Assembly (NCBI GenBank): GCA_040217195.1
Contig: JAVJNR010000005.1
Location: 448,001-512,000, forward strand
Direction of reading: 5' to 3'
DNA from: Leptospiraceae bacterium
GTDB lineage: Bacteria > Spirochaetota > Leptospiria > Leptospirales > Leptonemataceae
DNA length: 64,000 bases
This document shows positions 47,634-64,000 of this stretch, in pieces (within the stretch, counting starts at the first letter, position 1; the number at the start of each line of letters is the position of its first letter). The translations under genes were made by a program, and so were the position numbers. The notes beneath the pieces are model-generated. The model had not been told where the DNA came from. It worked only from the letters and a program-made list of their open reading frames with translations, and made no database searches.

Positions 47634-49172
47634 TTAGAGGATATACTGACTCAGATCTCGATTCTCCACAATGGACTGAAGTCTATCCTGCACAAAGGCT
47701 CGATCCACAACCACCTTTTTGTTTTCAATCTCCGGCGCCTGAAAAGAAACCTCTTCTAGCAGATGCTCCATAATTGTATGTAACCTTCTGGCACCGATGT
47801 TTTCCGTCTGATCATTGACTCGAAAGGCGACAGAGGCGATTTCTTCCAGTCCATCGTTGGTAAATGTGAGTTCCACATCTTCTGTGGCCAGCAGGGCCTG
47901 GGCCTGCCTGGTCAGCGAATTTTCCGGGCCTGTCAGTATTTGCAGAAAATCCTTTTCCGTGAGCTTTTCCAGCTCTACACGAATCGGAAATCGCCCCTGT
48001 AATTCTGGAATTAGATCCGATGGCCTTGTCGCATGAAACGCTCCAGCGGCCACAAACAGTATATGATCCGTCTTCACCGGTCCATTTCGGGTATTAACAG
48101 TGGCCCCCTCTACAATCGGAAGCAGATCTCTTTGCACTCCTTCGCGGCTTACATCCGGGCTGCCGCCAGTGCTTTTTCCACAGACCTTATCTATTTCATC
48201 GATAAATACAATCCCTAACTGCTCGGTTCGTCGGATGGCTTCGGACTGCACCTTTTCAGGATCTACCAGCTTTTCCAGCTCTTCATGGAATAGAATCTTC
48301 TTAGCATCTTCTACTGAGACCTTGCGACGTCTGGTCTTTCTGGGCATCATATCTCCCAGCATATTCTGAAGCTGCATATCCATTTCTTCCATATTTGGAC
48401 CGGACAGCACTTGAACCATAGGTGAAGACTGGCTGGATACTTCGATTTCGATTTCCTTATCATCAAATTCGCCGGCCTGAAGTTTTTGCCGCATTAGCTC
48501 TCGCACCCGGGCTTTCTTCTGAGCATCCTCTGCGTTGGCAGCGCTGGAATCAGACGAGGAAGTTTCGCTGCTGGTTGCCGGCTCGGATGCTGGAGCGCTG
48601 GAAGCAGGCTGCGAATTTCCCTGCCCTGTCATTTGTTCAAAGGAACGCTGGAGGTTACGGGCAAAATCGCTTAGATCGCCAATGCCCCCGGTGGGTGCAT
48701 TACTCGACTGCGCCGAGGATCCAGACCCGGGAAGTAAAGCATCCAGAACTCTCTCTTCTGTGTTCTTACGAGCCTGCTGCTCCACGGTGGCCTGAAATTC
48801 CTTCTTCACCAGGTTAATGGCTCCGGAAAGCAAGTCACGAATCATGGACTCCACATCCCGGCCAACGTATCCCACTTCCGTATACTTGGTAGCTTCAACC
48901 TTTACAAAAGGTGCTCCACTCAGTCGCGCCAGTCTACGTGCGATTTCCGTTTTGCCACATCCGGTGGGCCCAATCATTACAATGTTCTTTGGATAGATCT
49001 CTTCTTGAAGAAATGCATCCTCCACCTTCTGGCGACGAACACGATTTCGAATTGCAATGGCAACTGCCTTCTTGGCATCCTTTTGCCCCACAATGTACTT
49101 ATCAAGTTCCGCTACTATCTGCGTTGGAGTCATTGTCTCCACGCTAATTCTTTCTTCTAAATGATCTGACAT
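47634..49172 (-). CDS. hslU: ATP-dependent protease ATPase subunit HslU
   Basis: GPTGCGKTEIARR, EVGYVG, FIDEIDK, VQRDLLP, ENIGARRL, C-terminal LSQYIL. Confidence 0.97.
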   Translation of the reverse strand: MSDHLEERISVETMTPTQIVAELDKYIVGQKDAKKAVAIAIRNRVRRQKVEDAFLQEEIYPKNIVMIGPTGCGKTEIARRLARLSGAPFVKVEATKYTEVGYVGRDVESMIRDLLSGAINLVKKEFQATVEQQARKNTEERVLDALLPGSGSSAQSSNAPTGGIGDLSDFARNLQRSFEQMTGQGNSQPASSAPASEPATSSETSSSDSSAANAEDAQKKARVRELMRQKLQAGEFDDKEIEIEVSSQSSPMVQVLSGPNMEEMDMQLQNMLGDMMPRKTRRRKVSVEDAKKILFHEELEKLVDPEKVQSEAIRRTEQLGIVFIDEIDKVCGKSTGGSPDVSREGVQRDLLPIVEGATVNTRNGPVKTDHILFVAAGAFHATRPSDLIPELQGRFPIRVELEKLTEKDFLQILTGPENSLTRQAQALLATEDVELTFTNDGLEEIASVAFRVNDQTENIGARRLHTIMEHLLEEVSFQAPEIENKKVVVDRAFVQDRLQSIVENRDLSQYIL

Positions 49173-49190
49173 GAATTCCTCTGGCCGGAT

Positions 49191-49733
49191 TCAGGACTGC
49201 TCCAGCACCTCAATACTAATGTTGGTATTGGTAAATACGCAAATCTCACCTGCTAGATGCATAGATTTTTCAACTATGTCTCTGGCGCTCATATCGGTAT
49301 TCTCCAGCAAGGCCCTGGCTGCTGCCAGAGCATAGTTTCCACCAGAACCGATGGCCAGCACTCCATCATCCGAACTGATCACATCGCCAGTCCCGGATAT
49401 TAGAAATGATTCCGATGCATCTGCCACAATTAAGAGCGCTTCCAGGCGTCTGAGCATTCGATCCGTGCGCCATTCCCTGGCAAGTTCCACCGCAGCCCTG
49501 CTTAACTGGCTACGGTATTGCTCCACTTTCTTTTCGAATAATTCAAATAGAGTAAAAGCATCCGCAGCAGAGCCGGCAAAGCCTGCCAGGATATCTTTTC
49601 CTTCCAGTCGGCGGATCTTGCGAGCTCCACCTTTCATTACTGTATTGCCCATACTAACCTGACCATCGCCACCGATGGCTGTTTGGCCGTTACGTCGGAC
49701 ACAGAGAATGGTAGTTGAACGAATGCGAGCCAT
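49191..49733 (-). CDS. hslV: ATP-dependent protease peptidase subunit HslV
   Basis: [32 protein letters not shown]. Confidence 0.97.
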
Positions 49734-49808
49734 TGAGGCCAGATTTGGCCTATTAGCAGGCACGTAAAACCGTTTTTGGCTACGAATCCGGCGATGGAAG
49801 GCTCCGGG

Positions 49809-49836
49809 AAAAAGAAAAAGGCCCCTTGCGGGGCCC
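49809..49836 (-). terminator. Intrinsic terminator after the 49897-50643 gene
   Basis: Minus strand GGCCCC-GCAA-GGGGCC followed by TTTTTCTTTTT. Confidence 0.8.
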
Positions 49837-49896
49837 GAGCGGGAGAAGTGTTCAGTTAATACGTGAAGCCTCTGGCTTCATTTTATTTAGACGAGT

Positions 49897-50643
49897 TTAG
49901 AGATCGATTTGCCACTCATTTCTTTTATTTCTGCGGTCATAATAAGCAGCAATCATCATGTCCATGGAATACAGAGCTGTGCGCAGATTAGAAAACACCA
50001 GCCGGAATGCTTGCAACTGCACTTCAGGGGACATTTTTTCCAGGGTTTCTGGATCCGGGTTGTAGTGCTGCTTTCTGGTTACCAGCTCCATGGTCTGAAT
50101 GTATGGATAATACATCTTCAAGACCTTGCGGGTCCACAAGCTTGTATTGTAAACTCCCCTTTCCATGGAGTCCAGAACCAGACATTTCAGTTCACCATCC
50201 GGGCCATAATGCATTGCCAGGACTTTCTTCGAGTTAACAAAAATACCGTTTCGCCAGGAACCAGGATTATCCTCCAGGACAATCTCCTGGTAGTTGATCA
50301 ATCCACTGAATCGGTCCAGCCGAATCAATTCCTTGTGTTTGGCCTCGATGTCCTCTACGGCCTTGCCAACATTTTCGATTTCCAGCTTGAGCAAACGGGT
50401 GACTTCCGATCGGTACTGGGATTCCTGAGGGTTGTTTCCCCAGGTTTGTTCCCCCAGAATCAATCCTTCTTCCTTTTGCACATTGTTCAATGCATCCTGC
50501 TTGGCGCGATCGCCACATGTGCGCATCGGATCCACCTCGGCCGGCTTCTCCTCCTCGGCCGAATCTTCGGCAAAGGTAGGTACGATCAAAGCGCTTGCAA
50601 AAAGCAGCGCCAGACTAATTGAATATAACAGGGTCCTTTTCAT
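49897..50643 (-). CDS. Hypothetical secreted protein
   Basis: Signal peptide ending TFA; GGGAG SD; own terminator; no family recognised. Confidence 0.75.
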   Translation of the reverse strand: MKRTLLYSISLALLFASALIVPTFAEDSAEEEKPAEVDPMRTCGDRAKQDALNNVQKEEGLILGEQTWGNNPQESQYRSEVTRLLKLEIENVGKAVEDIEAKHKELIRLDRFSGLINYQEIVLEDNPGSWRNGIFVNSKKVLAMHYGPDGELKCLVLDSMERGVYNTSLWTRKVLKMYYPYIQTMELVTRKQHYNPDPETLEKMSPEVQLQAFRLVFSNLRTALYSMDMMIAAYYDRRNKRNEWQIDL

Positions 50644-50898
50644 TCGAGTTCTCCCAATGGAAGGTTCGGCTCTACAGGGGTGAGAATAAATGTACGATAA
50701 GAAGAAATCCAGAAAAAATGTTCAATTATTGGAAAAAAGAGCCGATTCTATTGCCTCTCATGGCCAGGTGGATGCAATAATGGACAATCCGGACAGATCA
50801 CCCGATCAGAGAGGCCGATTTGCCAGATTAGAAACAGTTAAGGTGGAAATCTGAACCAACGGTGAATCGGCCTGCGGGAAAATCCGCTGTATTTAAGA

Positions 50899-51279
50899 TC
50901 AGGTAGCCGGCCCGGGATTGCAGGTCCGAACAATTGCCTCATAGAATCCGGCCGATATATTGGAGTTGGTGGTGGCCGGACAGGGAGTGGCCACCAAAAG
51001 TACGAAACACTGATCTACTTTACTCTTATAATAGTGAGTACGACTCAGAATATCCTGAAACTCTCCGTTCAGGCTGTACTGGGCGGCCGTTTCCATCAAT
51101 GGACAGCCCTGGGAGTGCACAATCACACCCAGCTTCAGTTGGTCCAGGGCATCGGTGCGAGAAATCACCTGTTCCCCTTCCAGGAAGGTCAGTGGTTCTT
51201 CGCCCATCCAACCACAGTTGAACAGGAACGGCCCGAACCCAAACAGACCTAATATGAGAGCTTTCCGCAATCCGTTCAT
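50899..51279 (-). CDS. Small Cys-containing spirochaetal lipoprotein
   Basis: MNGLRKALILGLFGFGPFLFNC lipobox; YYKSKVDQC...TPC...C pattern recalls small Leptospira lipoprotein families. Confidence 0.6.
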   Translation of the reverse strand: MNGLRKALILGLFGFGPFLFNCGWMGEEPLTFLEGEQVISRTDALDQLKLGVIVHSQGCPLMETAAQYSLNGEFQDILSRTHYYKSKVDQCFVLLVATPCPATTNSNISAGFYEAIVRTCNPGPAT

Positions 51280-51381
51280 GGAGTCGATGGTCAAATTGGA
51301 ACCAGGAGTCAGCACGTCATGCAAAACAATAGCCATCCGATTGGATTGACTGGAAAAAGCAGTCCAAAGCACCGTCCTGTT

Positions 51382-54231
51382 ATGGATTGGACGCCTGCCA
51401 GACTGCGCCGCGAATGGTATAAATTCTTTGAAGGCAAGAAGCACTTGAAGCTTCCTTCTGCCAGCCTGCTACCGGCCGGGGACCCGACTTTATTGTTTAC
51501 CTCGGCGGGAATGGTTCCGTTCAAGCCCTATTTTGAAGGCTCTGAGGATCCCCCATCCGGCCGGGTGGTCACCATTCAAAAATGCCTCAGAACCACGGAT
51601 CTGGAAAGCGTAGGTAAAACGGCCCGACACCTGACCTTTTTTGAGATGCTGGGTAACTTTAGCTTTGGCGATTACTTCAAGAAAGAAGCGGTGGCCATGG
51701 CCTATGAATTCTCCACCGAAGTTCTGAAGCTGGATCCTGACAGGATTCATATAACCATATATACCGATGACGATGAAACGAAAGATCTGTGGATGGACAT
51801 CGGTGTTCCAGAGGATCGAATCACAAGACTGGGCAAAGAAGATAACTGGTGGGGACCTGCCGGCGATTCCGGCCCCTGCGGACCATGTACAGAGCTGTAT
51901 CTGGACCGTGGACCTGAGAAATGCTCCGCCGAAGGCGGATGTGGGAATCCAGATACATGTGCTCCAGGAAATGAATGCGATCGATACATGGAGTACTGGA
52001 ACCTGGTATTCAATCAGTACAATCAGGACCGGGAAGGTAATCTAACTCCGCTTCGCTCAAAAGGAATCGATACCGGCGCCGGCCTGGAGCGAATTGTTGC
52101 CATCCTGAATGGCACTGAAAGCGTCTATGAAACATCGGAACTAATTCAACTTAGAGAAAAGACCAAAGAAGCGATTGAATCCCTGGGACTGAGCGCCCCG
52201 GCCGAAGATTCCCATCATATTCTGTCTGCCTATCGAGTGATCGCAGATCATGCAAGATCGGCCAGCTTTGCCATAGGCGATGGAATTCTGCCGGATAACC
52301 ATGGCCGCGGATATGTGATTCGACGAATGCTTCGTCGGGCCTGCTTATTTGCCAGAGAACTGGGAGTTACCACACCACTATTGTATAACCTGGTCCCTAC
52401 TATCGTAGAAATCTACAATGAATTCTATCCTGAACTCAAAGATTCTGCGGAGAAAATTCAGAAAACCCTGGAAGATGAAGAGAAGCGATTCCTGCGAACT
52501 CTGGATACAGGAATGAAAATCTGGGAGCAATATCTTCAGGAGCACAAGGATAAAAAGGCCAGCAACTTTTCAGGATCCCAGGCCTTTCGTCTGTATGATA
52601 CGTACGGTTTTCCTCTGGAGATGACCATAGAGCTTGCAGAAAAAGCAGGCATGCAGGTGGACCTCAAGGAATTCGAAAAAGAAATGGAGCATCAAAGGGA
52701 GATGGCTCAGTCCGCTTCCAGGTGGGCCGATGTACAGTTGCCTTCGGATCTAAAGCTTCCTACGGGTCATCGCACAGAGTTTGAAGGCTATCATGAATTT
52801 CAGCGAAGTAGCACAGTAGAAGCCCTGGCTGAAGGCGATCACACCGAAGAGGCTTTGAAAGCTCCTAGCAATGAACGAAGCATGATCATCACCAGAGAAA
52901 CCTGCTTCTATCCAGAAGGAGGCGGTCAGCTAGGCGATACCGGTTGGATTCGATCCGATTCCGGAGTATTTCGCGTAGAAGATACAAAGAAAAAAGGCGA
53001 TTTAATTCTACACCTGGGTCGTATGGAAACCGGCGAAATCTCAGAAGGCCAGCCTGTGGAAATGGAAATCGATGAAGATCGAAGACTGGCTCTCATGCGA
53101 CATCATAGCGCCACGCATTTACTCAACAAGAGTCTACGCGATGTGCTGGGAGATCATATTCTGCAAACAGGCTCTCTGGTCGCCGATAACTATCTGAGAT
53201 TCGACTTTTCTCATCCAGATAAGATCTCAGGCGCAGACCTGGAAAAGATTGAAGAACAGGTAAACAAAGCCATAACCAGTGATGCAGAAGTAAGCACAAA
53301 CGTTCTACCTATTGAAGAGGCGAAGAAATCCGGTGCTCTGGCCACATTTGGTGAGAAGTATGGAGAAGAAGTACGAGTTGTGTCCATGGGCAACGGTGAT
53401 CTCAGCATTGAGTTTTGCGGTGGGTGTCATGTGGATCGGACCGGTCAGATTCAGTATTTTCATATTCTAAAGGAAAGCAGTCCTGGCGCGGGTAATCGTC
53501 GTATTGAAGCTGTGGCCGGTCCCGGCGTGGAGGATTACTTCAGCAGAGAATTCCATCGTCTTCAACTGGAACGTTCTAACCTGGAAGGCTCTTTACAGGG
53601 ATTGAGTAATCAGCTAAAGGAGAGTGCATCCGAAGATGCACCAGAACTGCAGAAAGAACTGGATCAATTAAAGCCGGTGCAGGAAATTCCTGAAGCCTAC
53701 AGTGTTCGGTCCACCCTGGAAAGCGCCGCCGGTGTTCTGAAACTGCAAAATCAATTGGTTTGCGTAGATGAGGAACTCCGAGAAAAGCAAAAACTAAGAC
53801 AGAAGCTGGAAAAGAAGATCAACAGTCAATCTGTGGACCTGGATTCCATTGTAGAAAAGGCTCGCTCCAGCGAACAAAAAAGAGGCAGCATACGTGTGTT
53901 TTCCTTGCAGGAAGATGGCCTGGATGCTCAGATTCTACGTCAGGCAGGAGATAGGCTCAAAGAAAGCGAGCGTGATTGCGTGGTGTTGATTGGTGCAAAA
54001 ACTGACAAAGGTGCCATGCTCGTCTTTATGGCCACAAAGTCTGCAGTTGATTCGGGCATTGACTGTGGCGCACTGATTCGCAATGCGGCGCCAGTAATAG
54101 GCGGTAAGGGCGGCGGCAAGAAGGACATGGCTCAAGCGGGCGGTCCCGATGCATCGTCCCTTTCCCGGGCATTAAAAAAGGCAGATTCTGAAATAGAATC
54201 CATGCTGGCAGCCGGCAAGAAAACCAGTTAG
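51382..54231 (+). CDS. alaS: Alanine--tRNA ligase
   Basis: DPTLLFTSAGM, RHLTFFEMLGNFSFGDYFK, IDTGAGLER, HSATHLL, CGGCH editing motif, GGKGGGK..AQAGG. Confidence 0.98.
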   Translation: MDWTPARLRREWYKFFEGKKHLKLPSASLLPAGDPTLLFTSAGMVPFKPYFEGSEDPPSGRVVTIQKCLRTTDLESVGKTARHLTFFEMLGNFSFGDYFKKEAVAMAYEFSTEVLKLDPDRIHITIYTDDDETKDLWMDIGVPEDRITRLGKEDNWWGPAGDSGPCGPCTELYLDRGPEKCSAEGGCGNPDTCAPGNECDRYMEYWNLVFNQYNQDREGNLTPLRSKGIDTGAGLERIVAILNGTESVYETSELIQLREKTKEAIESLGLSAPAEDSHHILSAYRVIADHARSASFAIGDGILPDNHGRGYVIRRMLRRACLFARELGVTTPLLYNLVPTIVEIYNEFYPELKDSAEKIQKTLEDEEKRFLRTLDTGMKIWEQYLQEHKDKKASNFSGSQAFRLYDTYGFPLEMTIELAEKAGMQVDLKEFEKEMEHQREMAQSASRWADVQLPSDLKLPTGHRTEFEGYHEFQRSSTVEALAEGDHTEEALKAPSNERSMIITRETCFYPEGGGQLGDTGWIRSDSGVFRVEDTKKKGDLILHLGRMETGEISEGQPVEMEIDEDRRLALMRHHSATHLLNKSLRDVLGDHILQTGSLVADNYLRFDFSHPDKISGADLEKIEEQVNKAITSDAEVSTNVLPIEEAKKSGALATFGEKYGEEVRVVSMGNGDLSIEFCGGCHVDRTGQIQYFHILKESSPGAGNRRIEAVAGPGVEDYFSREFHRLQLERSNLEGSLQGLSNQLKESASEDAPELQKELDQLKPVQEIPEAYSVRSTLESAAGVLKLQNQLVCVDEELREKQKLRQKLEKKINSQSVDLDSIVEKARSSEQKRGSIRVFSLQEDGLDAQILRQAGDRLKESERDCVVLIGAKTDKGAMLVFMATKSAVDSGIDCGALIRNAAPVIGGKGGGKKDMAQAGGPDASSLSRALKKADSEIESMLAAGKKTS

Positions 54232-54416
54232 CAGGTCTGAAATCAGAATTCTAGACTCATAGAATTGAGTATTAACACTGGTTTGAGAAAGCCAGTCGGT
54301 GCCCATCGGCACCTGGAAATTTTCGAAGATACGAATATGTGCAGAGTATCCAAAAAAGCACGGCACTTACGAAACCTATTATAGATACCCGGTAGATCCG
54401 GGCGAAGGGAGATACA

Positions 54417-54905
54417 ATGGCAGAAAGTTCATTTGATGTAGCATGTAAGGTAGATGAGCAAGAGCTGGCAAATGCCATAGACCAGACTCTAAAAGAAGTG
54501 AGTAATCGCTTTGATTTTAAGGGTGTAGACCTGAGCATAAAGAAAGAAAAGGACACTCTGGCCATGGACTGCTCGGATGAGCTCCATATGAAACAGCTCA
54601 TCGATGTTCTGCAGAGTAAGCTTGTGAAACGGGACTTGAATCTGAAAGCTTTCAAATTCGGGGAGTTGGATACAAACGTTTCCGGTCAGGTTAAATGCAA
54701 GGTAGAAGTGCAGAACGGCTTGACCCAGGAACAATGCAAGCAGGTGAATAAACTGATCAAAGATACCAAACTAAAGGTTCAAAGCCGGGTTCAGGGTGAT
54801 GCTGTAAGGGTTTCTGGAAAAAGCAAAGATGACCTTCAATCAGTAATGAAGGCCCTCCGGGAATCCGATCTTCCCTACGCGGTAACTTTCGACAACTATC
54901 GTTAG
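54417..54905 (+). CDS. yajQ: YajQ-family nucleotide (c-di-GMP)-binding protein
   Basis: SFDV..VD.QE..NA, RFDFKG, VQGDAVRVSGKSKDDLQ, final FDNYR. Confidence 0.93.
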   Translation: MAESSFDVACKVDEQELANAIDQTLKEVSNRFDFKGVDLSIKKEKDTLAMDCSDELHMKQLIDVLQSKLVKRDLNLKAFKFGELDTNVSGQVKCKVEVQNGLTQEQCKQVNKLIKDTKLKVQSRVQGDAVRVSGKSKDDLQSVMKALRESDLPYAVTFDNYR

Positions 54906-54911
54906 TAATGC

Positions 54912-55865
54912 ATGGCCTCCTTCGAAGAAGCACTTTTCAGCCTGCAGGCCGCTCACTTTGAAGAGGCCAAAACAGCATTCGGCACTCTACTGGAGATTGA
55001 TCCGGACAATACAGAATATATGGCTGGTTTCTATGCTTCCGGCTACTGGGCCAATCGCAAGGATCAGCTAACCACTCTGGAGCCAGTAAGACCGGGCACA
55101 GGCCTGATGGAAGCCTGGGACAACTTCCAGGACCTGGCAGAAGATAAAGGTTTTGCCAGCACGAAAAGTATACGGGCCGTAATGAAGGCAGTGCTGGGAA
55201 GAGCGGCCGAACAGTACCGGCAGAAATTCCAGAAAGAAGGTATGGCTCATCCGGATTTTTCGGATCTGGAAGAGCTGGGTAAATGTCTGATTCGCATCCA
55301 TGAATTTGGAAATGCCAGGGAAATCCTGCAATATGCGAAACGAATTCAGCCGGGAAGATCTGGTATCCATTTTCTTCTGGCCGAATCCTATTTGAACGAT
55401 GGTGAATCCGACGCTGCAGAGCGAGGACTTGGTTTTTATAGAGATGGTTTCATTATTCAGCCTGCACAGTTCGACGCAGGATATGCTTACTCATCGGTAG
55501 TGCAGGATACATTACAACAGCTGGGTGAAGAAAAGGATAACGATCTGGATAGAATTCTGCTCTGGTTGCCTGCCTATTTAATGGCCAGGTCCCAGTACTC
55601 TGGTCTTCGTCGATTGAACCGAGATGAAGTAAGTCAATTGCAACGGGAAACTCATAGACTGGAAAAGGACCTGGATACCGTCATGGACCACTTCAGGGAA
55701 AAAGTCCAGGCCCGTCTGGCTTTCTATTATCTGGTTCTGCATCAGGCTGCCATTTTTGTGTATGATGATCTGGATTATGCGAAAGAGCTTCTGAATGATC
55801 TAAAGACTTTGCATCCTGGTCTGGCTCAGTTGGTGAAGGAAGCTCTGCAGAAAAAACAGAAGTGA
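54912..55865 (+). CDS. TPR-like helical repeat protein
   Basis: EEAKTAFGTLLEIDPDN and LGKCLIRIHEFGNAREILQYAKRIQP are TPR-like repeats. Confidence 0.7.
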   Translation: MASFEEALFSLQAAHFEEAKTAFGTLLEIDPDNTEYMAGFYASGYWANRKDQLTTLEPVRPGTGLMEAWDNFQDLAEDKGFASTKSIRAVMKAVLGRAAEQYRQKFQKEGMAHPDFSDLEELGKCLIRIHEFGNAREILQYAKRIQPGRSGIHFLLAESYLNDGESDAAERGLGFYRDGFIIQPAQFDAGYAYSSVVQDTLQQLGEEKDNDLDRILLWLPAYLMARSQYSGLRRLNRDEVSQLQRETHRLEKDLDTVMDHFREKVQARLAFYYLVLHQAAIFVYDDLDYAKELLNDLKTLHPGLAQLVKEALQKKQK

Positions 55866-56120
55866 TGCGAATCTCTCCAAATAAAATTTCATTATAAGCG
55901 AATTTCTGAAAGAGAAACAGAAATTAAGAAATGATTCCTGGCAAACACCGTTGCAATCTCTTCGGCGACTGGCAATAGTGCCATTGGACAGTCCCGGTAT
56001 GCAAGACTCCAGAATTAGCTACTTCGGTTGATATCTCCCCTAATCCACTGGTAACAATGCCTGGCCATCACCGTATTGCAATTCAGTGGACTCACCTGAA
56101 ATTATTGATTAGTTTGAACA

Positions 56121-57188
56121 ATGCATTCTGGACTCCCTCTGGTCCAATTCATATCCCTGGAAAATAATCGATTCTTCTTTGGGCTCATTAGTATTGCGCT
56201 AATACTTCTGGGACTAAGGTATGCTATTCGGTATACAGGAGTTCTGATGCTGGATCGAACCAGGAATCGAATGCTCTGGGAACTCCTGGTAAAGAACTCC
56301 GGCACATTGTCCCTGTTTCTCACTGTGATCGCCGGTAACATTCTATTCAGCTACGGGCCCATGCCAGAGAATGTCAGCCCGGCTTACAACCAGGTACTTT
56401 TCCTGGCGGGCATCGCACTGGCTGCATTGCTGGTCATTCGCATGATGCTGGGATTCTCCAGGCTCTACCTTCGCCGATTTAACATGCATACCAGCGATAA
56501 CCTGGCTGCCCGCAAAGTACATACACAGGTTCGGATAATTGAGAGGATTGCCATTGTATTTATTCTATTTGTGACCCTTCTAACAGGAGCCCTATCGTTC
56601 GAAGAAGTCCGGGAATTCGGGGTCAGTATTCTGGCATCTGCCGGAGTTCTGGGTATCATACTTGGATTCGCGGCCCAGAAAAGCATCGCTTTGATCTTTG
56701 CTGGAATTCAAATAGCAATTACGCAGCCCATTCGCATAGAAGATGCCGTAATTGTTGAAAATGAATGGGGCTGGATAGAGGAGATTACGCTGACTTACGT
56801 GGTTATCAGGCTCTGGGATCGCCGTAGACTGATTGTACCTATCAATTATTTTACCGAGAAGCCGTTTCAGAATTGGACCAGACAATCCGCAGATCTACTG
56901 GGAACCGTATATGTCTATCTGGACTATCGCATGCCCGTGGAAGAAATTCGCGGAGTGGCCAGAAAGATTGTGGAGAGCACCCCTCTCTGGAATGGAGAGG
57001 TATGCGTTGTACAGGTTACAGAATTCATGAAAGACCATATGCAGCTTCGAATTCTGGCCACAGCCAACAGCAGTCCGGAGACCTATGATCTAAGATGCTT
57101 TATTCGAGAAAAACTTCTGGAATATCTGCTGGCCAACTATCCGGAAGCTTTACCGCGTATCCGGTTAGAAAAATCGGACCAGGGTTAG
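56121..57188 (+). CDS. MscS-family mechanosensitive channel
   Basis: LASAGVLGIILGFAAQKSI, QPIRIED, GWIEEITLTYVVIRLWDRRRLIVP, FQNWT. Confidence 0.92.
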   Translation: MHSGLPLVQFISLENNRFFFGLISIALILLGLRYAIRYTGVLMLDRTRNRMLWELLVKNSGTLSLFLTVIAGNILFSYGPMPENVSPAYNQVLFLAGIALAALLVIRMMLGFSRLYLRRFNMHTSDNLAARKVHTQVRIIERIAIVFILFVTLLTGALSFEEVREFGVSILASAGVLGIILGFAAQKSIALIFAGIQIAITQPIRIEDAVIVENEWGWIEEITLTYVVIRLWDRRRLIVPINYFTEKPFQNWTRQSADLLGTVYVYLDYRMPVEEIRGVARKIVESTPLWNGEVCVVQVTEFMKDHMQLRILATANSSPETYDLRCFIREKLLEYLLANYPEALPRIRLEKSDQG

Positions 57189-57498: not shown

Positions 57499-58545
57499 TC
57501 AAAAAGTAGCCGTAAAGACGGGCCCAATAATCCAGCTTCGATTAAAGGTAAGGGTCACTTCTGGCTCTGCGTACAAATAAGAGGTTTGAATTCCTACGTT
57601 TGGATGAAAGAAAAGCAATGCCGTGGTGGTTACATTCCAGGCGCCTTTATTCCAGTTCCTTCGCGCATTGATATTCAGGCTAAGAAACTTATTGTAGTCC
57701 ATGAAAAGGATCAATCCCCCACTTCTATCTTCCCTGGGAATCTGCGACATGGAACCTGCATTAATAGCACTTCCCACTCCATCGTAGGTCCAGGCCTGAA
57801 CAATAGCATTAGCATCTGTGGGAATCAGGTTTTCCTGACCAATAGAACGCCCAATCGTGGGACGAGTATTGATATGGTAACGATTGGCAGCATACTGAAC
57901 ATACGGAGTAATGCTCCAGCTCTGAATCGGCAATTTGAATCGAATTCCCAGTTTTCCCACATTAGAATGTGATCCATCATCTGCATCGATAACGGGAAAG
58001 GATTGATACACATTGGTTCCAATGGTCTTGAACAATGCATTGGTAACCTTATAATGTGCAGTGAAGCCCGTATGGGTGTACCCCACCATGGGCGCGATTG
58101 AGTCCGTTATATTCCAGTAATACTCTATGGACCCTGTGTAGACGTTTCCGTTGGCGCCTCCCCCTGCATTCTCTATAGGAAGAGTGGAGTCTCGCAGTGG
58201 AGTAAAGTTCACCTCGGCCCTTGTGTAAGCTGCAGAGATGACAAGGGAGTCGCTACGCAACATCATCTGAACCCCCTTTTGAGGCCCGACGCCTTCCACT
58301 GCCAGATCAAGCGTTCCTGACTGTGTCAGACCTGTAATTCTTCCTATGGCAGGCGAAACCGAAGCTCCGGTACTGGGATCCGTATAATTGAATGGCAGCG
58401 CAGATCGAAGCTGCAAATTCATCTGGCCCGCAAAGGGACTGATGATAAATCTCCAATCGGACCCATCTTCTTCAGCCAGCAGCAGGTTGGTTTGTCCTAG
58501 CAGGACCACAAGCAGCGTACCGACCAGTTTTCTTTTTAATCGCAT
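57499..58545 (-). CDS. Orphan outer-membrane beta-barrel protein
   Basis: Signal peptide, amphipathic aromatic-rich beta strands, C-terminal beta-signal GPVFTATF; GGAGG SD. Confidence 0.75.
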   Translation of the reverse strand: MRLKRKLVGTLLVVLLGQTNLLLAEEDGSDWRFIISPFAGQMNLQLRSALPFNYTDPSTGASVSPAIGRITGLTQSGTLDLAVEGVGPQKGVQMMLRSDSLVISAAYTRAEVNFTPLRDSTLPIENAGGGANGNVYTGSIEYYWNITDSIAPMVGYTHTGFTAHYKVTNALFKTIGTNVYQSFPVIDADDGSHSNVGKLGIRFKLPIQSWSITPYVQYAANRYHINTRPTIGRSIGQENLIPTDANAIVQAWTYDGVGSAINAGSMSQIPREDRSGGLILFMDYNKFLSLNINARRNWNKGAWNVTTTALLFFHPNVGIQTSYLYAEPEVTLTFNRSWIIGPVFTATF

Positions 58546-58597
58546 TGAATTCCTCCAGATTCCGGCACTACTGTTTTCGCACCGATAGGCCTACTAT

Positions 58598-58613
58598 AGC
58601 AGGAAATGTGCCA
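58598..58613 (-). promoter_or_regulatory. Sigma54 (RpoN) -24/-12 promoter of the beta-barrel gene
   Basis: Minus strand TGGCACATTTCCTGCT (TGGCAC-N5-CTGC, GG-N10-GC), 52 nt upstream of the ATG. Confidence 0.75.
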
Positions 58614-58660
58614 GCACTATTGAGGCCAATCCTGCCTTGCTGAGTCCCCTGAAGGGGCCA

Positions 58661-58761
58661 TTGATTGAAATCAAGCAGAACGATTCTCAGCAGTTGATTG
58701 ATTTCAAACAGAGTTGCTCCGATTTCCTTTAGCTCAGGGATTTCAATTAGCTATCAATCAA
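58661..58761. promoter_or_regulatory. Putative bEBP upstream activating sequences
   Basis: TTGATTGAAATCAA (58661-58674), TTGATTGATTTCAA (58694-58707) and inverted TCAATCAA (58754-58761), all between two sigma54 promoters. Confidence 0.55.
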
Positions 58762-58853
58762 TCTAGAAACAGTGCAGAATCCATCCAGGAGGGCCTCCGC
58801 GTTAGATCTCCCCAGCAGCAGTAAGAATGAGAACACTGCACTAAATTCTACCC

Positions 58854-58869
58854 TGGCATGATTCCTGCT
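58854..58869 (+). promoter_or_regulatory. Sigma54 (RpoN) -24/-12 promoter of the PP2C-BASS operon
   Basis: TGGCATGATTCCTGCT (GG-N10-GC), 23 nt upstream of ATG 58893. Confidence 0.7.
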
Positions 58870-58892
58870 TTAGTAATTGCAGGGTTGAGTTC

Positions 58893-61184
58893 ATGCTACA
58901 AATAACATTCTTCACATTTGGTACATCCATTGTGGCCATCTTCATGTTTGTGATGGCCTTGCTTTTGTTGCGAATCAAGAAAAGAGCCTATTCTACCAAT
59001 TTTCTGGCCGCAACATATCTATTGATCGGATTCCATGCACTGGCTTTCGTCATGGCTTCGTCGGTAACGCACCCGGCGGGTGCCTATCATCGCTGGATGG
59101 TTTTGCTAGTAGTGCCGGCTCTTTCGTGCATGACGCACTTCTTTTTTCATTATCCGCATCCCAGGTCAACTCAATGGGGAAGCAGGATATTCACTCTCCA
59201 GATATTGGCCTGGCTACTTTTCTGCGGATACTATATATGGAAAACTCTATCTGTCCAGCCCAGCTTCGATTCTGCAGAACATAGCTGGGTATTTCCCGTA
59301 CCAAACGCCAACAAAGCACTCGGAATCATGCTTATGGTCTATATGTTAGGCGTTGTAATCGCCGGCATCTGGAGAGCTTCTAGAAAAGAGCCCGGAGCGC
59401 GAACTGCCTGGATGTTTCTGACTCTCTTTTTGCTCTTAATCGTTCCTCCTGTGGTGGCCAACGGATTAAGTCGAGCAGGCATCATCAGCCGGGCGACCTT
59501 TCTAAGTATCTATATCTTCTTCATGGTACCTGGTGCCTTTTCTCTCTTGATACTTTACATCAATACTACCAATGACCGCACCAGATTTATTGGAAGAATC
59601 GTAGCCGTTTGCCTGGGCTCCTTTCTGCTCCTATTCTACTGGGCCGCACTGATTCAATTGCCCATCCTGGAAAAGAATTACGATCAGATTCATCTGCAGA
59701 AATCCTTTCAGGCAGTGTATGAGGATTCCGCGCAATCCGGGTTCTCGGTCCAGGCGATAGATCATGCGAAGTATGAGTTTCTGGAAACCGGGGCCGTCAC
59801 AGAGCGAAAATCTGCGCAGAAGGTGCACAGCGAGCCCATAAATCTATCAGATTCTCAGCTCAGGAGCTCCGGTCTGCTGGCCAGAAACTTTCGGCTAGTC
59901 AAACTGAACTCAAATGGTGCTCCAGCAACCATATCCTATCTCATTGAAGACACATCCTCCAGCACTCTGTACGAAATAGACTTTCAGTATTTAGACTATC
60001 GCGCCTATCTTCATGATGCTATGGGAAGGTACGTCCTGGTGCTTTTCCTTGCATTGTTTGTAGTCCTGGCAGGATTCCGGTTTTTCTTTAAAGGGGCGAT
60101 CTGGAATCCGCTACAATCCTTGCTCACAGGTATTCGCAAGGTTAATGAAGGCGATTTAAGCATTAGAATTCCTTTCAGGGTAAAAGATGAAATAGGTTTT
60201 CTTACAGAAACTTTCAATCAGATGGTAGAATCCATTCAGGATGCCAGGCATGCATTGGCCAACCATGCAGAAACTCTGGAAATCGAAGTAGATCGAAGAA
60301 CCATGGAGCTGCAGGAACTTCTGGAGCAGCAACGCGGGGATTATTACCTAACGTCCCTTCTATTAAAGCCATTCGGACGAAGCAGGATGCTCAATTCATC
60401 CGTGGGCATCGAATTCTTAACTCATCAAAAGAAGCAATTCTCCTTCAAGAATCAAGAATATGAAATTGGAGGAGATCTTTCCATGGCAGATCGAATCACC
60501 ATCGAGAACCGACCGTTTACAGCCTTCGTAAACGCGGATGCAATGGGAAAATCCATCCAGGGGGCTGGAGGCGCCATCGTCATGGGCTCCGTCTTTGGTG
60601 CAATTCTACAGAGAGGACAAACTCCAGAAACGGCCAGACTCTACAATACGCCGGAAAGATGGCTCGTGGCTGCCTATCGCGAGCTAAGTCGTGTTTTTGA
60701 GATGTTCGACGGGAACATGCTAATTACAGCCATCATTGGCCTGGTGGATGAAGAAAGCGGCACCGTCTATCTGGTCAATGCAGATCATCCGTTTCCAGCT
60801 GTTCTGCGAAAAGGCCGTGCTAGCTTTCTTCGCATGCGAGATGTTCAGGGGCGCCTGGGCATGCCTCCGGAAACAGGCAATAAATTTGTAGTACATACCT
60901 TCAAGCTCCAGGCCGGCGATGCCATGTTTCTTGGCTCGGATGGAAAGGATGATCTGGAGCTGGAACCTGCTAGCGATGGAACCAGATCCATAAACGATGA
61001 TGATCGAGTATTTCTCAAACAGATCGAAAAGCACAGTGGCGATCTGCAGTCCATCTATAAAGGCTTGCGAGAGGTAGGTTCCATAACCGACGACCTCTCT
61101 CTGGTTAAGATAGAGTTTTTTCCTGTGCGCACCAACGGGCAGATGCCTTCAGCACCACCTTCGGCATCCGTTCAGACTATCTAA
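58893..61184 (+). CDS. Multi-TM sensor-HAMP-SpoIIE/PP2C serine phosphatase
   Basis: About 7-8 N-terminal TMs, HAMP (DEIGFLTETFNQM), PP2C motifs IGGDL, NADAMGKSIQGAGGA, GSDG, TDDLSL. Confidence 0.9.
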   Translation: MLQITFFTFGTSIVAIFMFVMALLLLRIKKRAYSTNFLAATYLLIGFHALAFVMASSVTHPAGAYHRWMVLLVVPALSCMTHFFFHYPHPRSTQWGSRIFTLQILAWLLFCGYYIWKTLSVQPSFDSAEHSWVFPVPNANKALGIMLMVYMLGVVIAGIWRASRKEPGARTAWMFLTLFLLLIVPPVVANGLSRAGIISRATFLSIYIFFMVPGAFSLLILYINTTNDRTRFIGRIVAVCLGSFLLLFYWAALIQLPILEKNYDQIHLQKSFQAVYEDSAQSGFSVQAIDHAKYEFLETGAVTERKSAQKVHSEPINLSDSQLRSSGLLARNFRLVKLNSNGAPATISYLIEDTSSSTLYEIDFQYLDYRAYLHDAMGRYVLVLFLALFVVLAGFRFFFKGAIWNPLQSLLTGIRKVNEGDLSIRIPFRVKDEIGFLTETFNQMVESIQDARHALANHAETLEIEVDRRTMELQELLEQQRGDYYLTSLLLKPFGRSRMLNSSVGIEFLTHQKKQFSFKNQEYEIGGDLSMADRITIENRPFTAFVNADAMGKSIQGAGGAIVMGSVFGAILQRGQTPETARLYNTPERWLVAAYRELSRVFEMFDGNMLITAIIGLVDEESGTVYLVNADHPFPAVLRKGRASFLRMRDVQGRLGMPPETGNKFVVHTFKLQAGDAMFLGSDGKDDLELEPASDGTRSINDDDRVFLKQIEKHSGDLQSIYKGLREVGSITDDLSLVKIEFFPVRTNGQMPSAPPSASVQTI

Positions 61185-61203
61185 CTTAAAATAGGAGAGT
61201 TAA

Positions 61204-62139
61204 ATGCAAAGTTCGCTTCTTCTGGAGTTGGTTTTACCAATTTCATTGTTTATCATTATGTTCGGTATGGGTTTGTCCCTGAGCATTCCGGATTTCACCC
61301 GAATTGCACGGTACCCCAGGGCTGTGGCCGTCGGACTCACCGCGCAGATATTTCTGTTACCTGTCATAGGGCTGGGAGTTGCAGAAGCATTTTCCCTGGA
61401 GCCATTGCTGGCCACAGGGCTGATGATTCTGGCTTTTTGCCCCTCTGGCGCAACATCCAATATGTATAGCTACATCTTCAAGGGCGATGTAGCACTTTCG
61501 CTGACCATGACAGCACTGATCAGTATTATCAAGCCATTCACTCTACCCTTTCTGGCTTACTATGCGATGCTTCATTTCCTGGGAGAGGGTATGATCATAG
61601 ACCTCCCCATTGGGAAAACCATCGCGCAACTTTTTATCATCACAGTACTTCCAGTTCTGATCGGTATGGTGGTAAGATACTATGCACATCGATGGGCCAC
61701 AAAGTTTGAAAAATACGTAAAGGTTTTCTCCGTGGTTATTCTGTTTGCAATCATCGGAGGGTTGATACGGCAGAATTGGGATCAAATGGTCGGCTTTTTT
61801 GCCCAGGCAGGGGCAGCCGCCATGACTCTAAACATTGTATCCATTACAGTGGGATTCTTGCTGGCACTGCTCATTCGCCTGGACAGAAAACAATCCATCA
61901 CAATAGCTTTTGAACTGGGTATCCAGAATGGAACCACAGCTTTGCTGGTAACTGGAACGATCCTGAAAGAACCGGCCATGACTGTGGTACCTGTGACCTA
62001 CAGTCTATTAATGTTTATTACCGCTCTGGTCTTTGGACTATCCATGCGATACTTATTTCGCGATCCTCGCAAGGAAAGCGATGTAGAATCTTCCAACACT
62101 CCCGACGCCATGGTAGCTTCTTTGCGAAATCGACCATGA
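61204..62139 (+). CDS. Bile acid:sodium symporter (BASS/SBF) family transporter
   Basis: IMFGMGLSL, CPSGATSN, KGDVALSL, ELGIQNGT. Confidence 0.92.
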   Translation: MQSSLLLELVLPISLFIIMFGMGLSLSIPDFTRIARYPRAVAVGLTAQIFLLPVIGLGVAEAFSLEPLLATGLMILAFCPSGATSNMYSYIFKGDVALSLTMTALISIIKPFTLPFLAYYAMLHFLGEGMIIDLPIGKTIAQLFIITVLPVLIGMVVRYYAHRWATKFEKYVKVFSVVILFAIIGGLIRQNWDQMVGFFAQAGAAAMTLNIVSITVGFLLALLIRLDRKQSITIAFELGIQNGTTALLVTGTILKEPAMTVVPVTYSLLMFITALVFGLSMRYLFRDPRKESDVESSNTPDAMVASLRNRP

Positions 62140-62149
62140 ACTCACCCTT

Positions 62150-62178
62150 GCGGAGGCTACGGCCTCCGCCCTTTTTTT
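62150..62178 (+). terminator. Intrinsic terminator after the BASS gene
   Basis: GCGGAGGC-TACG-GCCTCCGC then CCTTTTTTT, 10 nt after the stop. Confidence 0.85.
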
Positions 62179-62476
62179 ATCCCATTGATTCATTGTATTA
62201 ATCCGTTCTCCTGGCAAAATCAAGACATCACATTCTTTGATCCATTTGTTAATACATTCTATTGCTCTATTGATATTGCCTTTATCCTGACAAACCACAC
62301 TCGGATGGATATAAAGCTATCAAGACTCGCTGGAAACTGTTCTGATTGTTCCAGGTAGGCTCCCGCCATTTCAGTATTCTGTTTTTCATCAAGCCAGGCA
62401 AATAACTGAATATTCAGCCCTTGCCATTTGGAATGGCTGGTCTGCTTTTTGCGAACAACATCCTTCAAGGGATGAC

Positions 62477-64000
62477 TTACTCCATTCCCAGATGCCGCAT
62501 CTGGTACTGTAATTTTCCTCTGGAAATATGCAGGTATCGCGCTGCTTCGGACTTGTTTCCATCGCAATGATTTAGCGCTGCTTCTATCATTCTTCGGGAG
62601 TAAATGGCTATCTGCTCTTCAAATCCAGCTGCGGCCACAGACTCATTTCCATTGGCTCTAGGGGCTGCCGGAACCGAGATAGTTCGATTGGAAACTCGCA
62701 TGGACTCCGGCACATCACCGGCTTCAATGCGGTCTGAGTCCAGATTGGCCATAATTCGAATAATGCAATTTTCCAGCTCTCGAATGTTTCCAGGCCATTC
62801 ATATTCAACCATCATAGCCATGGCTTCATCGCTAAGCTCCGGACATTCCAGATCCATTTGATCAGAATATCGATTCAAGAAACCCTGAATCAGATGCGGA
62901 ATATCCGATCGGCGCTCTCTTAATGGAGGGATGCGTACTTCAAAAACATTGATTCTATAATATAGATCTTCGCGAAATGTACCATCTGCAACCATGGACT
63001 TCAAATCCCGGTGTGTAGCAAATATGATTCGACAGGTAGCCAGTAGCTCATCCCGGCCCCCCAGACGCTTGTATTTGCCTTCCTGCAGCAGACGCAGTAT
63101 CTTGGGCTGAATCTCCAGGGGCATTTCGCCAACTTCATCAAAGAACAGTGTTCCTCCATTCGCTTCTGCGACATGGCCGGCGTAGTCTGAACGTGCGTCC
63201 GTGAAGGCCCCCCGTACATGCCCAAATATCTGACTTTCCCAGAGGGTAATGGGCACCGCAGCACAGTTTATTGGAACGAACGGCCCGCCTTCTGGATGAC
63301 CTTCATGGTGCAAAAGGGCTGCGATGAGCTCCTTACCCGTTCCTGTCTCTCCGTTAATTAATACAGGTTGCCGACGCTGGGCAATTCGCTTCACTCGTTC
63401 CACTGCAGCATGCATGCTTCGGCTGGCATATATTAAACTCTTGTCGCCCAGCTTTCGCTCCTCTGGCGCTGCATCAAAAATAGAGTCCGACTCCAGAATG
63501 GTTCTTTCCAGGCTGGTGGTGTACTGCCTCAACTCGTCCCGGGCATCTCGAATGGATTTAACCATGGAATTGAATGCCTTTCCCAGTTGGCCCAGCTCAT
63601 CGCTTCCTTCTGCTCTTAGCTGAACACCCAGTTCCCCGCCCTGCACCTGATCCACGGCAGAAAGCAACGAATCCAGAGGCTTAAGCAAAGCCATTCGCAT
63701 AAAATACAAAAGACCGGCTGTCAAAATCAGGAATGATAATAACATGAGGCCCACCCATCCCAGTAGATAATCATGTATCAAAGACCGATAGGACAGATAG
63801 GGAAGTGCTATCTCAGTGTTTCTTTCCTGATTCCAGAACAATACCTCGGGATGCAAACCGGGAGGGCTATAGAAGCCCCAGTAAAGGGTCGCACTGTTTT
63901 GATTCGTGCGAAGATACTCATTGTTCCGTTCCCGGATTTCCCCGGCGTACAGCGCCTCATCAGGTGCAGACTGGCCCTGGTATTCAGCCAACAGGCGAAA
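62477..64000 (-). CDS. Membrane-anchored HAMP-containing sigma54 enhancer-binding protein (AAA+, Fis HTH); 5' end lies outside the window
   Basis: TM + HAMP (DELGQLGKAFNSM), GETGTGKE, INCAA, GAFTDA, FFDEVGE, FREDLYYRI, WPGNIRELEN, GNKSEAARYLHISR; frame is open to the window edge. Confidence 0.93.
   Translation of the reverse strand, partial: FRLLAEYQGQSAPDEALYAGEIRERNNEYLRTNQNSATLYWGFYSPPGLHPEVLFWNQERNTEIALPYLSYRSLIHDYLLGWVGLMLLSFLILTAGLLYFMRMALLKPLDSLLSAVDQVQGGELGVQLRAEGSDELGQLGKAFNSMVKSIRDARDELRQYTTSLERTILESDSIFDAAPEERKLGDKSLIYASRSMHAAVERVKRIAQRRQPVLINGETGTGKELIAALLHHEGHPEGGPFVPINCAAVPITLWESQIFGHVRGAFTDARSDYAGHVAEANGGTLFFDEVGEMPLEIQPKILRLLQEGKYKRLGGRDELLATCRIIFATHRDLKSMVADGTFREDLYYRINVFEVRIPPLRERRSDIPHLIQGFLNRYSDQMDLECPELSDEAMAMMVEYEWPGNIRELENCIIRIMANLDSDRIEAGDVPESMRVSNRTISVPAAPRANGNESVAAAGFEEQIAIYSRRMIEAALNHCDGNKSEAARYLHISRGKLQYQMRHLGME

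Follow-up and report, generated by a model that had tools for sequence, protein, structure and literature searches.

Which compound is sensed and taken up by a sigma54-controlled set of membrane proteins, and how far does that set extend? The question is raised by a 64,000-nucleotide stretch of a Leptospiraceae genome (assembly GCA_040217195.1, contig JAVJNR010000005.1, positions 448,001 to 512,000), which we call the window; it lies on contig C4 of a genome (G000) of 4.6 Mb and 48.6% GC. Here, an outer-membrane beta-barrel gene (57499–58545, minus strand) diverges from an operon of a membrane sensor-HAMP-SpoIIE-type PP2C gene (58893–61184, plus strand) and a BASS-family symporter gene (61204–62139, plus strand), and the gene of a one-component membrane bacterial enhancer-binding protein (bEBP) converges on that operon. 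An initial annotation, made from the letters of the window, had read these genes as a self-contained four-gene module. Its layout was right: the four open reading frames (ORFs), the 19-nt gap between the PP2C stop and the BASS start, the intrinsic terminator-like stem-loop behind the operon (62150–62179, plus strand; GC stem plus T run) and the convergent bEBP gene lie where it had placed them. Its boundary has to be moved, as the unit comprises seven genes, three of them outside the window, and the four window genes are only a part. The bEBP gene, of which the window holds the 3′ part (62477–64000, minus strand), runs 804 bases past the window end (C4:510477–512804; 775 amino acids), and is followed by a DUF3089 lipoprotein esterase gene (C4:512998–514026, minus strand), the divergent gene phaZ for a secreted depolymerase of medium-chain polyhydroxyalkanoate (mcl-PHA), 277 amino acids long (C4:514533–515366, plus strand) and a gene for a 211-amino-acid membrane-anchored protein (C4:515965–516600, plus strand). 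We propose that the cluster is, more likely than not, a self-contained sigma54 regulon for scavenging mcl-PHA made by other bacteria.

The cluster recurs as a unit. Among 156 Leptospirales genomes surveyed, the genes co-occur, clustered, in 19, which bears out the synteny that the initial annotation had suggested checking, and all 19 loci were retrieved and compared. The barrel, previously regarded as an orphan, has profile matches in 46/156 genomes and a close group (E ≤ 3e-160, with a profile that includes some of these sequences) in 19; the same 19 genomes hold full-length orthologues of the N-terminal 370 residues of the activator (E ≤ 7e-55; next best match 9e-30) and a PhaZ above the curated cut-off. 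Barrel, PP2C, activator, phaZ and the small membrane-protein gene are present at 19/19 loci. The BASS gene is found at 18, the contig of locus L065 ending before it, and the DUF3089 gene likewise at 18, genome G117 having it beside a second barrel on another contig. The 19 genomes come from four genus groups in two families, and their clusters show three gene orders or more; the order differs between G000, G035 and G036, the 14 genomes of genus group g34, and G049, and the divergence of the barrel from PP2C-BASS is constant. PP2C orthologues in Leptospiraceae clusters are 44–47% identical and BASS orthologues 65–69%, and named homologues occur in L. wolffii, L. selangorensis, L. inadai, L. fainei, L. 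broomii and L. neocaledonica. The GC content of the cluster (45–52%) is genome-like and thus gives no sign of recent arrival. A 180-amino-acid ORF behind phaZ shows no homology to the Leptospira gene at that position; the homologue is the following ORF, of 211 amino acids. For this seventh gene, a role as lipase foldase was considered, but finds support in neither family nor structure.

The flanks of the cluster carry further genes. In G000, the adjoining stretch (C4:516791–532952) holds an acyl-CoA carboxylase of 1941 amino acids, an ACP-synthase-like ORF of 133 amino acids and, with roughly 3300 amino acids, a type I fatty-acid synthase. In G049, the cluster extends with a second BASS gene, fabD, an SDR gene, fabA and a fabG-like gene (L066:12132–17817), and in g34 (L058:404–4227, L061, L068) a thioesterase-like gene and either one or two genes for thiolases border the cluster, accompanied in some cases by a TetR-like ORF.

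Sigma54 control by a dedicated neighbouring membrane activator, a central element of the initial annotation, has held up: rpoN is present in the genome, the promoters are kept, and tandem palindromes specific to the cluster accompany them. The −24/−12 site expected for each divergent unit was found, at 58598–58613 (minus strand) for the barrel and at 58854–58869 (plus strand) for the operon, and the predicted starts near 58587 and 58880 agree with those proposed before. Both sites are kept at 19/19 loci when scored with a slightly looser version of the strict pattern, which itself has 55 matches in 4.6 Mb (0.012 per kb); a sigma70 scan returned 9 sites against 9.8 by chance. Outside the window, a sigma54-like site precedes the DUF3089 gene (C4:514075–514090, minus strand) and a sigma54 site precedes phaZ (C4:514466–514481, plus strand); in this DUF3089/phaZ region, the loosened pattern finds sites at 17/19 and 12/19 loci.

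These four sigma54-type sites surround two tandem pairs of palindromes. The first pair consists of a 16-bp palindrome with the consensus YGATTGAWWTCAATCR (58662–58677), a candidate activator site, and a second candidate site 33 bp from it (58695–58710); the second pair (C4:514160–514207) lies between the DUF3089 gene and phaZ. The barrel/PP2C pair occurs with a spacing of 33 bp and at most four mismatches per pair at 19/19 loci, and the phaZ-side pair with a spacing of 31–32 bp at 18/19, L066 having two strong single sites instead. When G000 was scanned at spacings of 20–45 with a weight matrix derived exclusively from 29 Leptospiraceae sites, 21 pairs had both halves above 5 bits, and the cluster pairs came first (41.8 and 39.9 bits), with weaker half-sites of 20.4 and 15.2 bits against 8.5 in the next pair. 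Two relocated barrel-DUF3089 operons (L069, L018) each retain a palindrome pair and a sigma54 site. Across the order, an exact pattern gave 29 matches in 16/19 cluster genomes, each of them at a promoter region of the cluster or ahead of a barrel that has relocated, and one match each in 6/137 non-cluster genomes (reversed control, 4 genomes). Built from cluster sites, this pattern missed three Leptonemataceae cluster genomes and shows only that further sites did not turn up; as its matches in the cluster genomes are confined to cluster promoters, the regulon looks local. G000 encodes seven bEBPs besides the cluster activator, and it is because of their co-occurrence with the latter that we assign the palindromes to it as candidate binding sites.

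The substrate is suggested by phaZ. Its product scores 383.7 bits against the NCBIfam e_dPHAmcl equivalog NF050057 (cut-off 270), which all 19 copies pass, and shares 60% identity with the PhaZ of P. luteola. The triad Ser171, Asp227 and His259 is invariant in 24 aligned rows, and the lipase box reads GISSG at 16 loci and GVSSG at 3; a hydrophobic x1 residue in this box is described as typical of PHA depolymerases in the accessible part of PMC2666664. By these features, PhaZ is a homologue of the extracellular mcl-PHA depolymerases and likely acts as one; no match to it was found in plasmids or solved structures. It resembles the e_dPHAmcl enzymes of P. fluorescens GK13, P. luteola and Bdellovibrio in family score, signal peptide, GISSG box and Ser-Asp-His triad, but, unlike them, is encoded within a sigma54 sensing-uptake cluster. 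Since NCBI already names Leptospira depolymerases individually, the apparent novelty lies in the circuit and not in the depolymerase gene. The DUF3089 protein (PF11288), with a GHSQG motif and an invariant early lipobox-like Cys, fits a Family XV esterase. A PhaC_N match was absent from all six cluster genomes tested, so that the polymer is probably foreign. The suggestion of the initial annotation that the ligand is a hydrophobic anion comes close to this reading; its steroid or bile acid is unsupported, the catabolic genes being those of an mcl-PHA depolymerase and an esterase.

The same regulon might serve another natural substrate, such as rhamnolipid-type hydroxyalkanoyloxy-alkanoates, acyloxyacyl lipids or plant polyesters, with PHA activity being incidental. 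This is suggested by the spirochete PhaZ branch, which is supported (99) and separate from the named gammaproteobacterial enzymes, by the fatty-acid genes adjoining the cluster in several genomes, and by the surroundings of phaZ elsewhere. Among 79 metagenomic PhaZ loci, three are near-identical relatives with cluster genes; at none of the other 76, all non-Leptospirales and many on short contigs, was a barrel, DUF3089, BASS or PP2C neighbour found, and one has a distant bEBP, from which it follows that PHA use does not generally involve these partners. We nevertheless consider a different substrate unlikely, given the identity to P. luteola PhaZ, the score far above the equivalog cut-off and the conservation of the whole catalytic domain.

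The barrel protein (348 amino acids, with a signal peptide) matches no Pfam family. Its AF2 model (pLDDT 79) has 12 long strands from residue 32 and no plug, making it a candidate oligomer channel. In structural comparison, the EstA barrel ranks first (VIA Z 17.9, rmsd 3.8, 248 residues aligned; Foldseek E 1.9e-8), followed by the porins NanC (17.1; 3.5; 185) and KdgM (16.7; 3.1; 169), to which identity in the structural alignment is 9–10%. The first rank of EstA raises the alternative that the barrel serves to hold the DUF3089 esterase at the surface or to export it there, in the manner of a split EstA, the rest of the circuit being unchanged. The two genes are adjacent and co-oriented in L066, L069 and L018 and relocate together. 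However, NanC and KdgM lie within about 1 Z of EstA, barrel and esterase belong to separate operons at most cluster loci, and a lipobox-like Cys is present in the esterase itself, which leaves this arrangement very unlikely in our view. A classical autotransporter was rejected, as the protein of 348 amino acids has no fused passenger (the homologue search covered 191–609 amino acids), and so was a FadL channel, given 12 strands instead of 14, no N-terminal hatch, a first strand directly after a low-confidence leader and a FadL Z of 9.1. Distant barrel paralogues (30–32% identity) occur in 15 genomes of group g33 and, by sequence, form a second barrel subfamily; two of their loci (L075, L076) were checked and have no palindrome pair, and the pair was found at 0/11 loci of distant paralogues.

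The BASS protein (311 amino acids; SBF, PF01758, 126 bits) is a candidate 3-hydroxyalkanoate importer. Its cross-over motifs and E-x-G-x-Q-N Na+ site align with those of ASBT-NM and are shared with PanS as well, whereas its score reaches neither the TIGR00841 cut-off (190 vs 326) nor that of PanS (96 vs 400). BASS proteins transport small hydroxy and keto acids according to the available text of PMC10645422. The nearest solved structures are those of a 300-amino-acid transporter (PDB 28sv/28sw/28sx/28sz; E 9e-35), nearer than ASBT-NM and a potential modelling template.

The activator had been described as a TM-HAMP-AAA+-Fis protein. HAMP, AAA+ and Fis helix-turn-helix (HTH) domains are indeed present (Pfam Sigma54_activat, HAMP and HTH_8), but its membrane part is not a simple transmembrane segment: the model (pLDDT 84) shows nine helices, namely a seven-helix bundle, a transmembrane helix, a small periplasmic alpha/beta domain and a ninth helix, followed by HAMP. 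Walker A is intact in 19/19 copies, and Walker B and, for the arginine finger, REDLYYR in the 18/18 not truncated by a contig end. Beyond HAMP, the sensor region has no Pfam family in 38/38 aligned rows, and an Atlas search of the sensor returned Cache-family leads only, all below 0.8. Elsewhere in G000, a second bEBP of 840 amino acids with a hydrophobic N-terminus and a GAFTDA loop (C3:147480–150002) has a PP2C neighbour (C3:141944–144691); this pair is possibly another membrane activator module.

The cluster PP2C (763 amino acids; Pfam SpoIIE and HAMP) carries a homologous membrane sensor module. Its phosphatase domain scores above the PF07228 cut-off with GGD, DAMGKS and DGKDD motifs in 19/19 copies, the strict pattern for the last motif, DDLS, being matched in 5/19 only. 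A search with the sensor module gave 323 representatives at E ≤ 1e-30. Among the best 150, 83 match a PP2C domain and three an AAA+ domain, so that fusion to AAA+ is rare, and 35 of the remaining 64 were scanned and showed SpoIIE, kinase, cyclase and chemoreceptor outputs. The module was matched in 145/156 genomes of the order and, with a GAYHRW-like motif, on five further G000 PP2Cs (for example C1:988881–991676 and C10:678298–681369). In a quick tree, the activator sensors and the cluster PP2C sensors fall into two supported groups that branch alike and are not sisters, which points to co-inheritance; a common ligand does not follow. The initial annotation had the PP2C relaying the same signal into an Rsb-like pathway, a claim that these separate clades do not favour, nor does the distribution of STAS domains: a cognate STAS anti-anti-sigma factor was not found in or near the cluster, the 20 STAS matches of G000 all lying elsewhere. 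The PP2C is one of 18 SpoIIE-type phosphatases in this genome, and its partner is possibly encoded remotely. For the wider view behind that claim, a four-gene fatty- or steroid-acid sensing and uptake module whose chief output is a second signal to an anti-sigma cascade, one can cite the BASS family membership, the intact PP2C and the STAS matches; it omits the co-regulated depolymerase and esterase that share the palindromes, no steroid-degradation gene was seen among the annotated cluster neighbours, and the two sensors are not sisters. We regard it as highly improbable.

Returning to a regulon for mcl-PHA, we propose the following hypothetical scheme, in which we infer the substrate, the ligand and every mechanistic and transport step: (i) PhaZ, once secreted, would degrade the polyester, with dimers of 3-hydroxyalkanoates as the main product; (ii) dimers or monomers would cross the outer membrane by way of the 12-stranded barrel; (iii) the DUF3089 lipoprotein esterase would split the dimers; (iv) the BASS protein would import the monomers with Na+; (v) on sensing a breakdown product, the membrane bEBP would transmit the signal to its AAA+ domain via HAMP, occupy the palindromes and activate the four promoters, its own among them, resulting in positive feedback; and (vi) the PP2C, induced along with the rest, would hand on a related cue to a partner whose gene lies elsewhere. 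In the accessible part of PMC11893044, the depolymerases of GK13 and Bdellovibrio are reported to release mainly dimers, and that of GK13 to be induced by 3-hydroxyalkanoates, with no sensor named there. A type I fatty-acid synthase domain is found in 37/156 genomes, 18 of the 19 with the cluster among them, and in seven it lies no further than about 20 kb from the cluster; in G049, carboxylase, fabD, fabA and SDR genes surround the cluster. Because of these fatty-acid genes, the monomers may feed lipid synthesis besides beta-oxidation, a link weakened by the presence of the synthase in all 24 g34 genomes. If the scheme is true, (R)-3-hydroxy acids are possibly fed into the neighbouring fatty-acid synthase, and marine Leptonemataceae and intermediate-clade Leptospira would be unrecognised PHA degraders.

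Several observations weigh against this scheme. With 14 of the 19 cluster genomes belonging to the single genus group g34, the count of 19 overstates independence, and the independent cluster lineages perhaps number about four or five. PF07167 may miss class III PHA synthases, which bears on the foreign origin of the polymer. The top structural match of the barrel is an autotransporter barrel, albeit with a porin within 1 Z, and the partner genes were not seen beside PhaZ at the 76 other loci. DUF3089 occurs in 66/156 genomes, mostly without PhaZ, and Est10, a DUF3089 enzyme that has been characterised, acts best on C4 esters, weakly on C10 and not on C12, in the portion of PMC4431682 available. 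ASBT-NM prefers a 2-hydroxy acid, as far as the available text of PMC10645422 goes, while we propose a 3-hydroxy acid as the cargo. The bEBP loop reads GAFTDA instead of GAFTGA in 18/18 copies; this variant is listed among functional ones in the accessible part of PMC4641369, and its functionality is left undecided in that of PMC10714721. Finally, medium-chain acids may simply diffuse into the cell: a genetic screen (2026) yielded no uptake gene for mcl-PHA products, and passive diffusion was proposed, in the text of PMC13101487 open to us.

The logic of the cluster is familiar from other systems. One-component bEBPs of the DmpR/XylR and PrpR type drive small-molecule-induced sigma54 catabolic operons from paired palindromic upstream sites and sense their ligand in the cytoplasm; the cluster bEBP shares this logic and differs in its membrane-integral, Pfam-unnamed sensor. 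Pectin use relies on secreted lyases, the KdgM porin and an inner-membrane transporter. It likewise combines a secreted depolymerase, a 12-stranded channel for acidic oligomers, a second hydrolase, an importer and induction by the product, but acts on a polysaccharide and not a polyester, under a repressor and not an activator, and has no sequence relationship to the cluster (9% in structural alignment). Within Leptospira, EbpA and EbpB are also AAA+ plus HTH activators at −24/−12 promoters (accessible part of PMC12655853); EbpA has a GAF and EbpB a receiver domain, in contrast to the nine-helix membrane sensor, HAMP and compact local regulon of the cluster bEBP. They are the only Leptospira sigma54 activators named in the portions of PMC4758666 and PMC12655853 available, although S12 Table of the former may list the cluster activator. 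A leptospiral sigma54 motif is given in the available part of PMC5243855.

The cluster appears to be a product-induced sigma54 polymer-use regulon, and its circuit appears undescribed, as the initial annotation had supposed: the cluster was not described in the literature covered on Leptospira EBPs, Leptospira and PHA, PHA uptake, membrane bEBPs and DUF3089, most subscription papers lying outside this coverage. Only tentatively, and with somewhat more doubt than belief, do we suggest that it is the first complete regulon for sensing, degrading and importing mcl-PHA, with a new channel, dimer hydrolase, 3-hydroxyalkanoate/Na+ symporter and sigma54 activator with a nine-helix sensor. The cluster offers candidates for the channel, dimer hydrolase, importer and sensor of mcl-PHA products and for the DNA site of that sensor, and may supply the so far missing uptake route for these products. 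Its bEBP would be a third type of sigma54 activator, embedded in the membrane, beside the two soluble ones that reviews, in their accessible parts, give for this group, and the cluster provides a first ligand hypothesis for a widespread sensor module of phosphatases, kinases, cyclases and chemoreceptors, as well as a predicted carbon source for environmental leptospires. The activator and its palindromes could serve as a PHA-degradation biosensor.

On the barrel side of the window, the ORFs at 47634–57188 read as housekeeping genes (hslU, hslV, alanyl-tRNA synthetase and a YajQ-like gene) followed by a TPR protein and an MscS-family gene at 56121–57188. Among the sequencing runs listed as containing parts of the window there is no RNA run, which has no bearing on expression; the seven that each contain at least one fifth of it are marine metagenomes from five studies.

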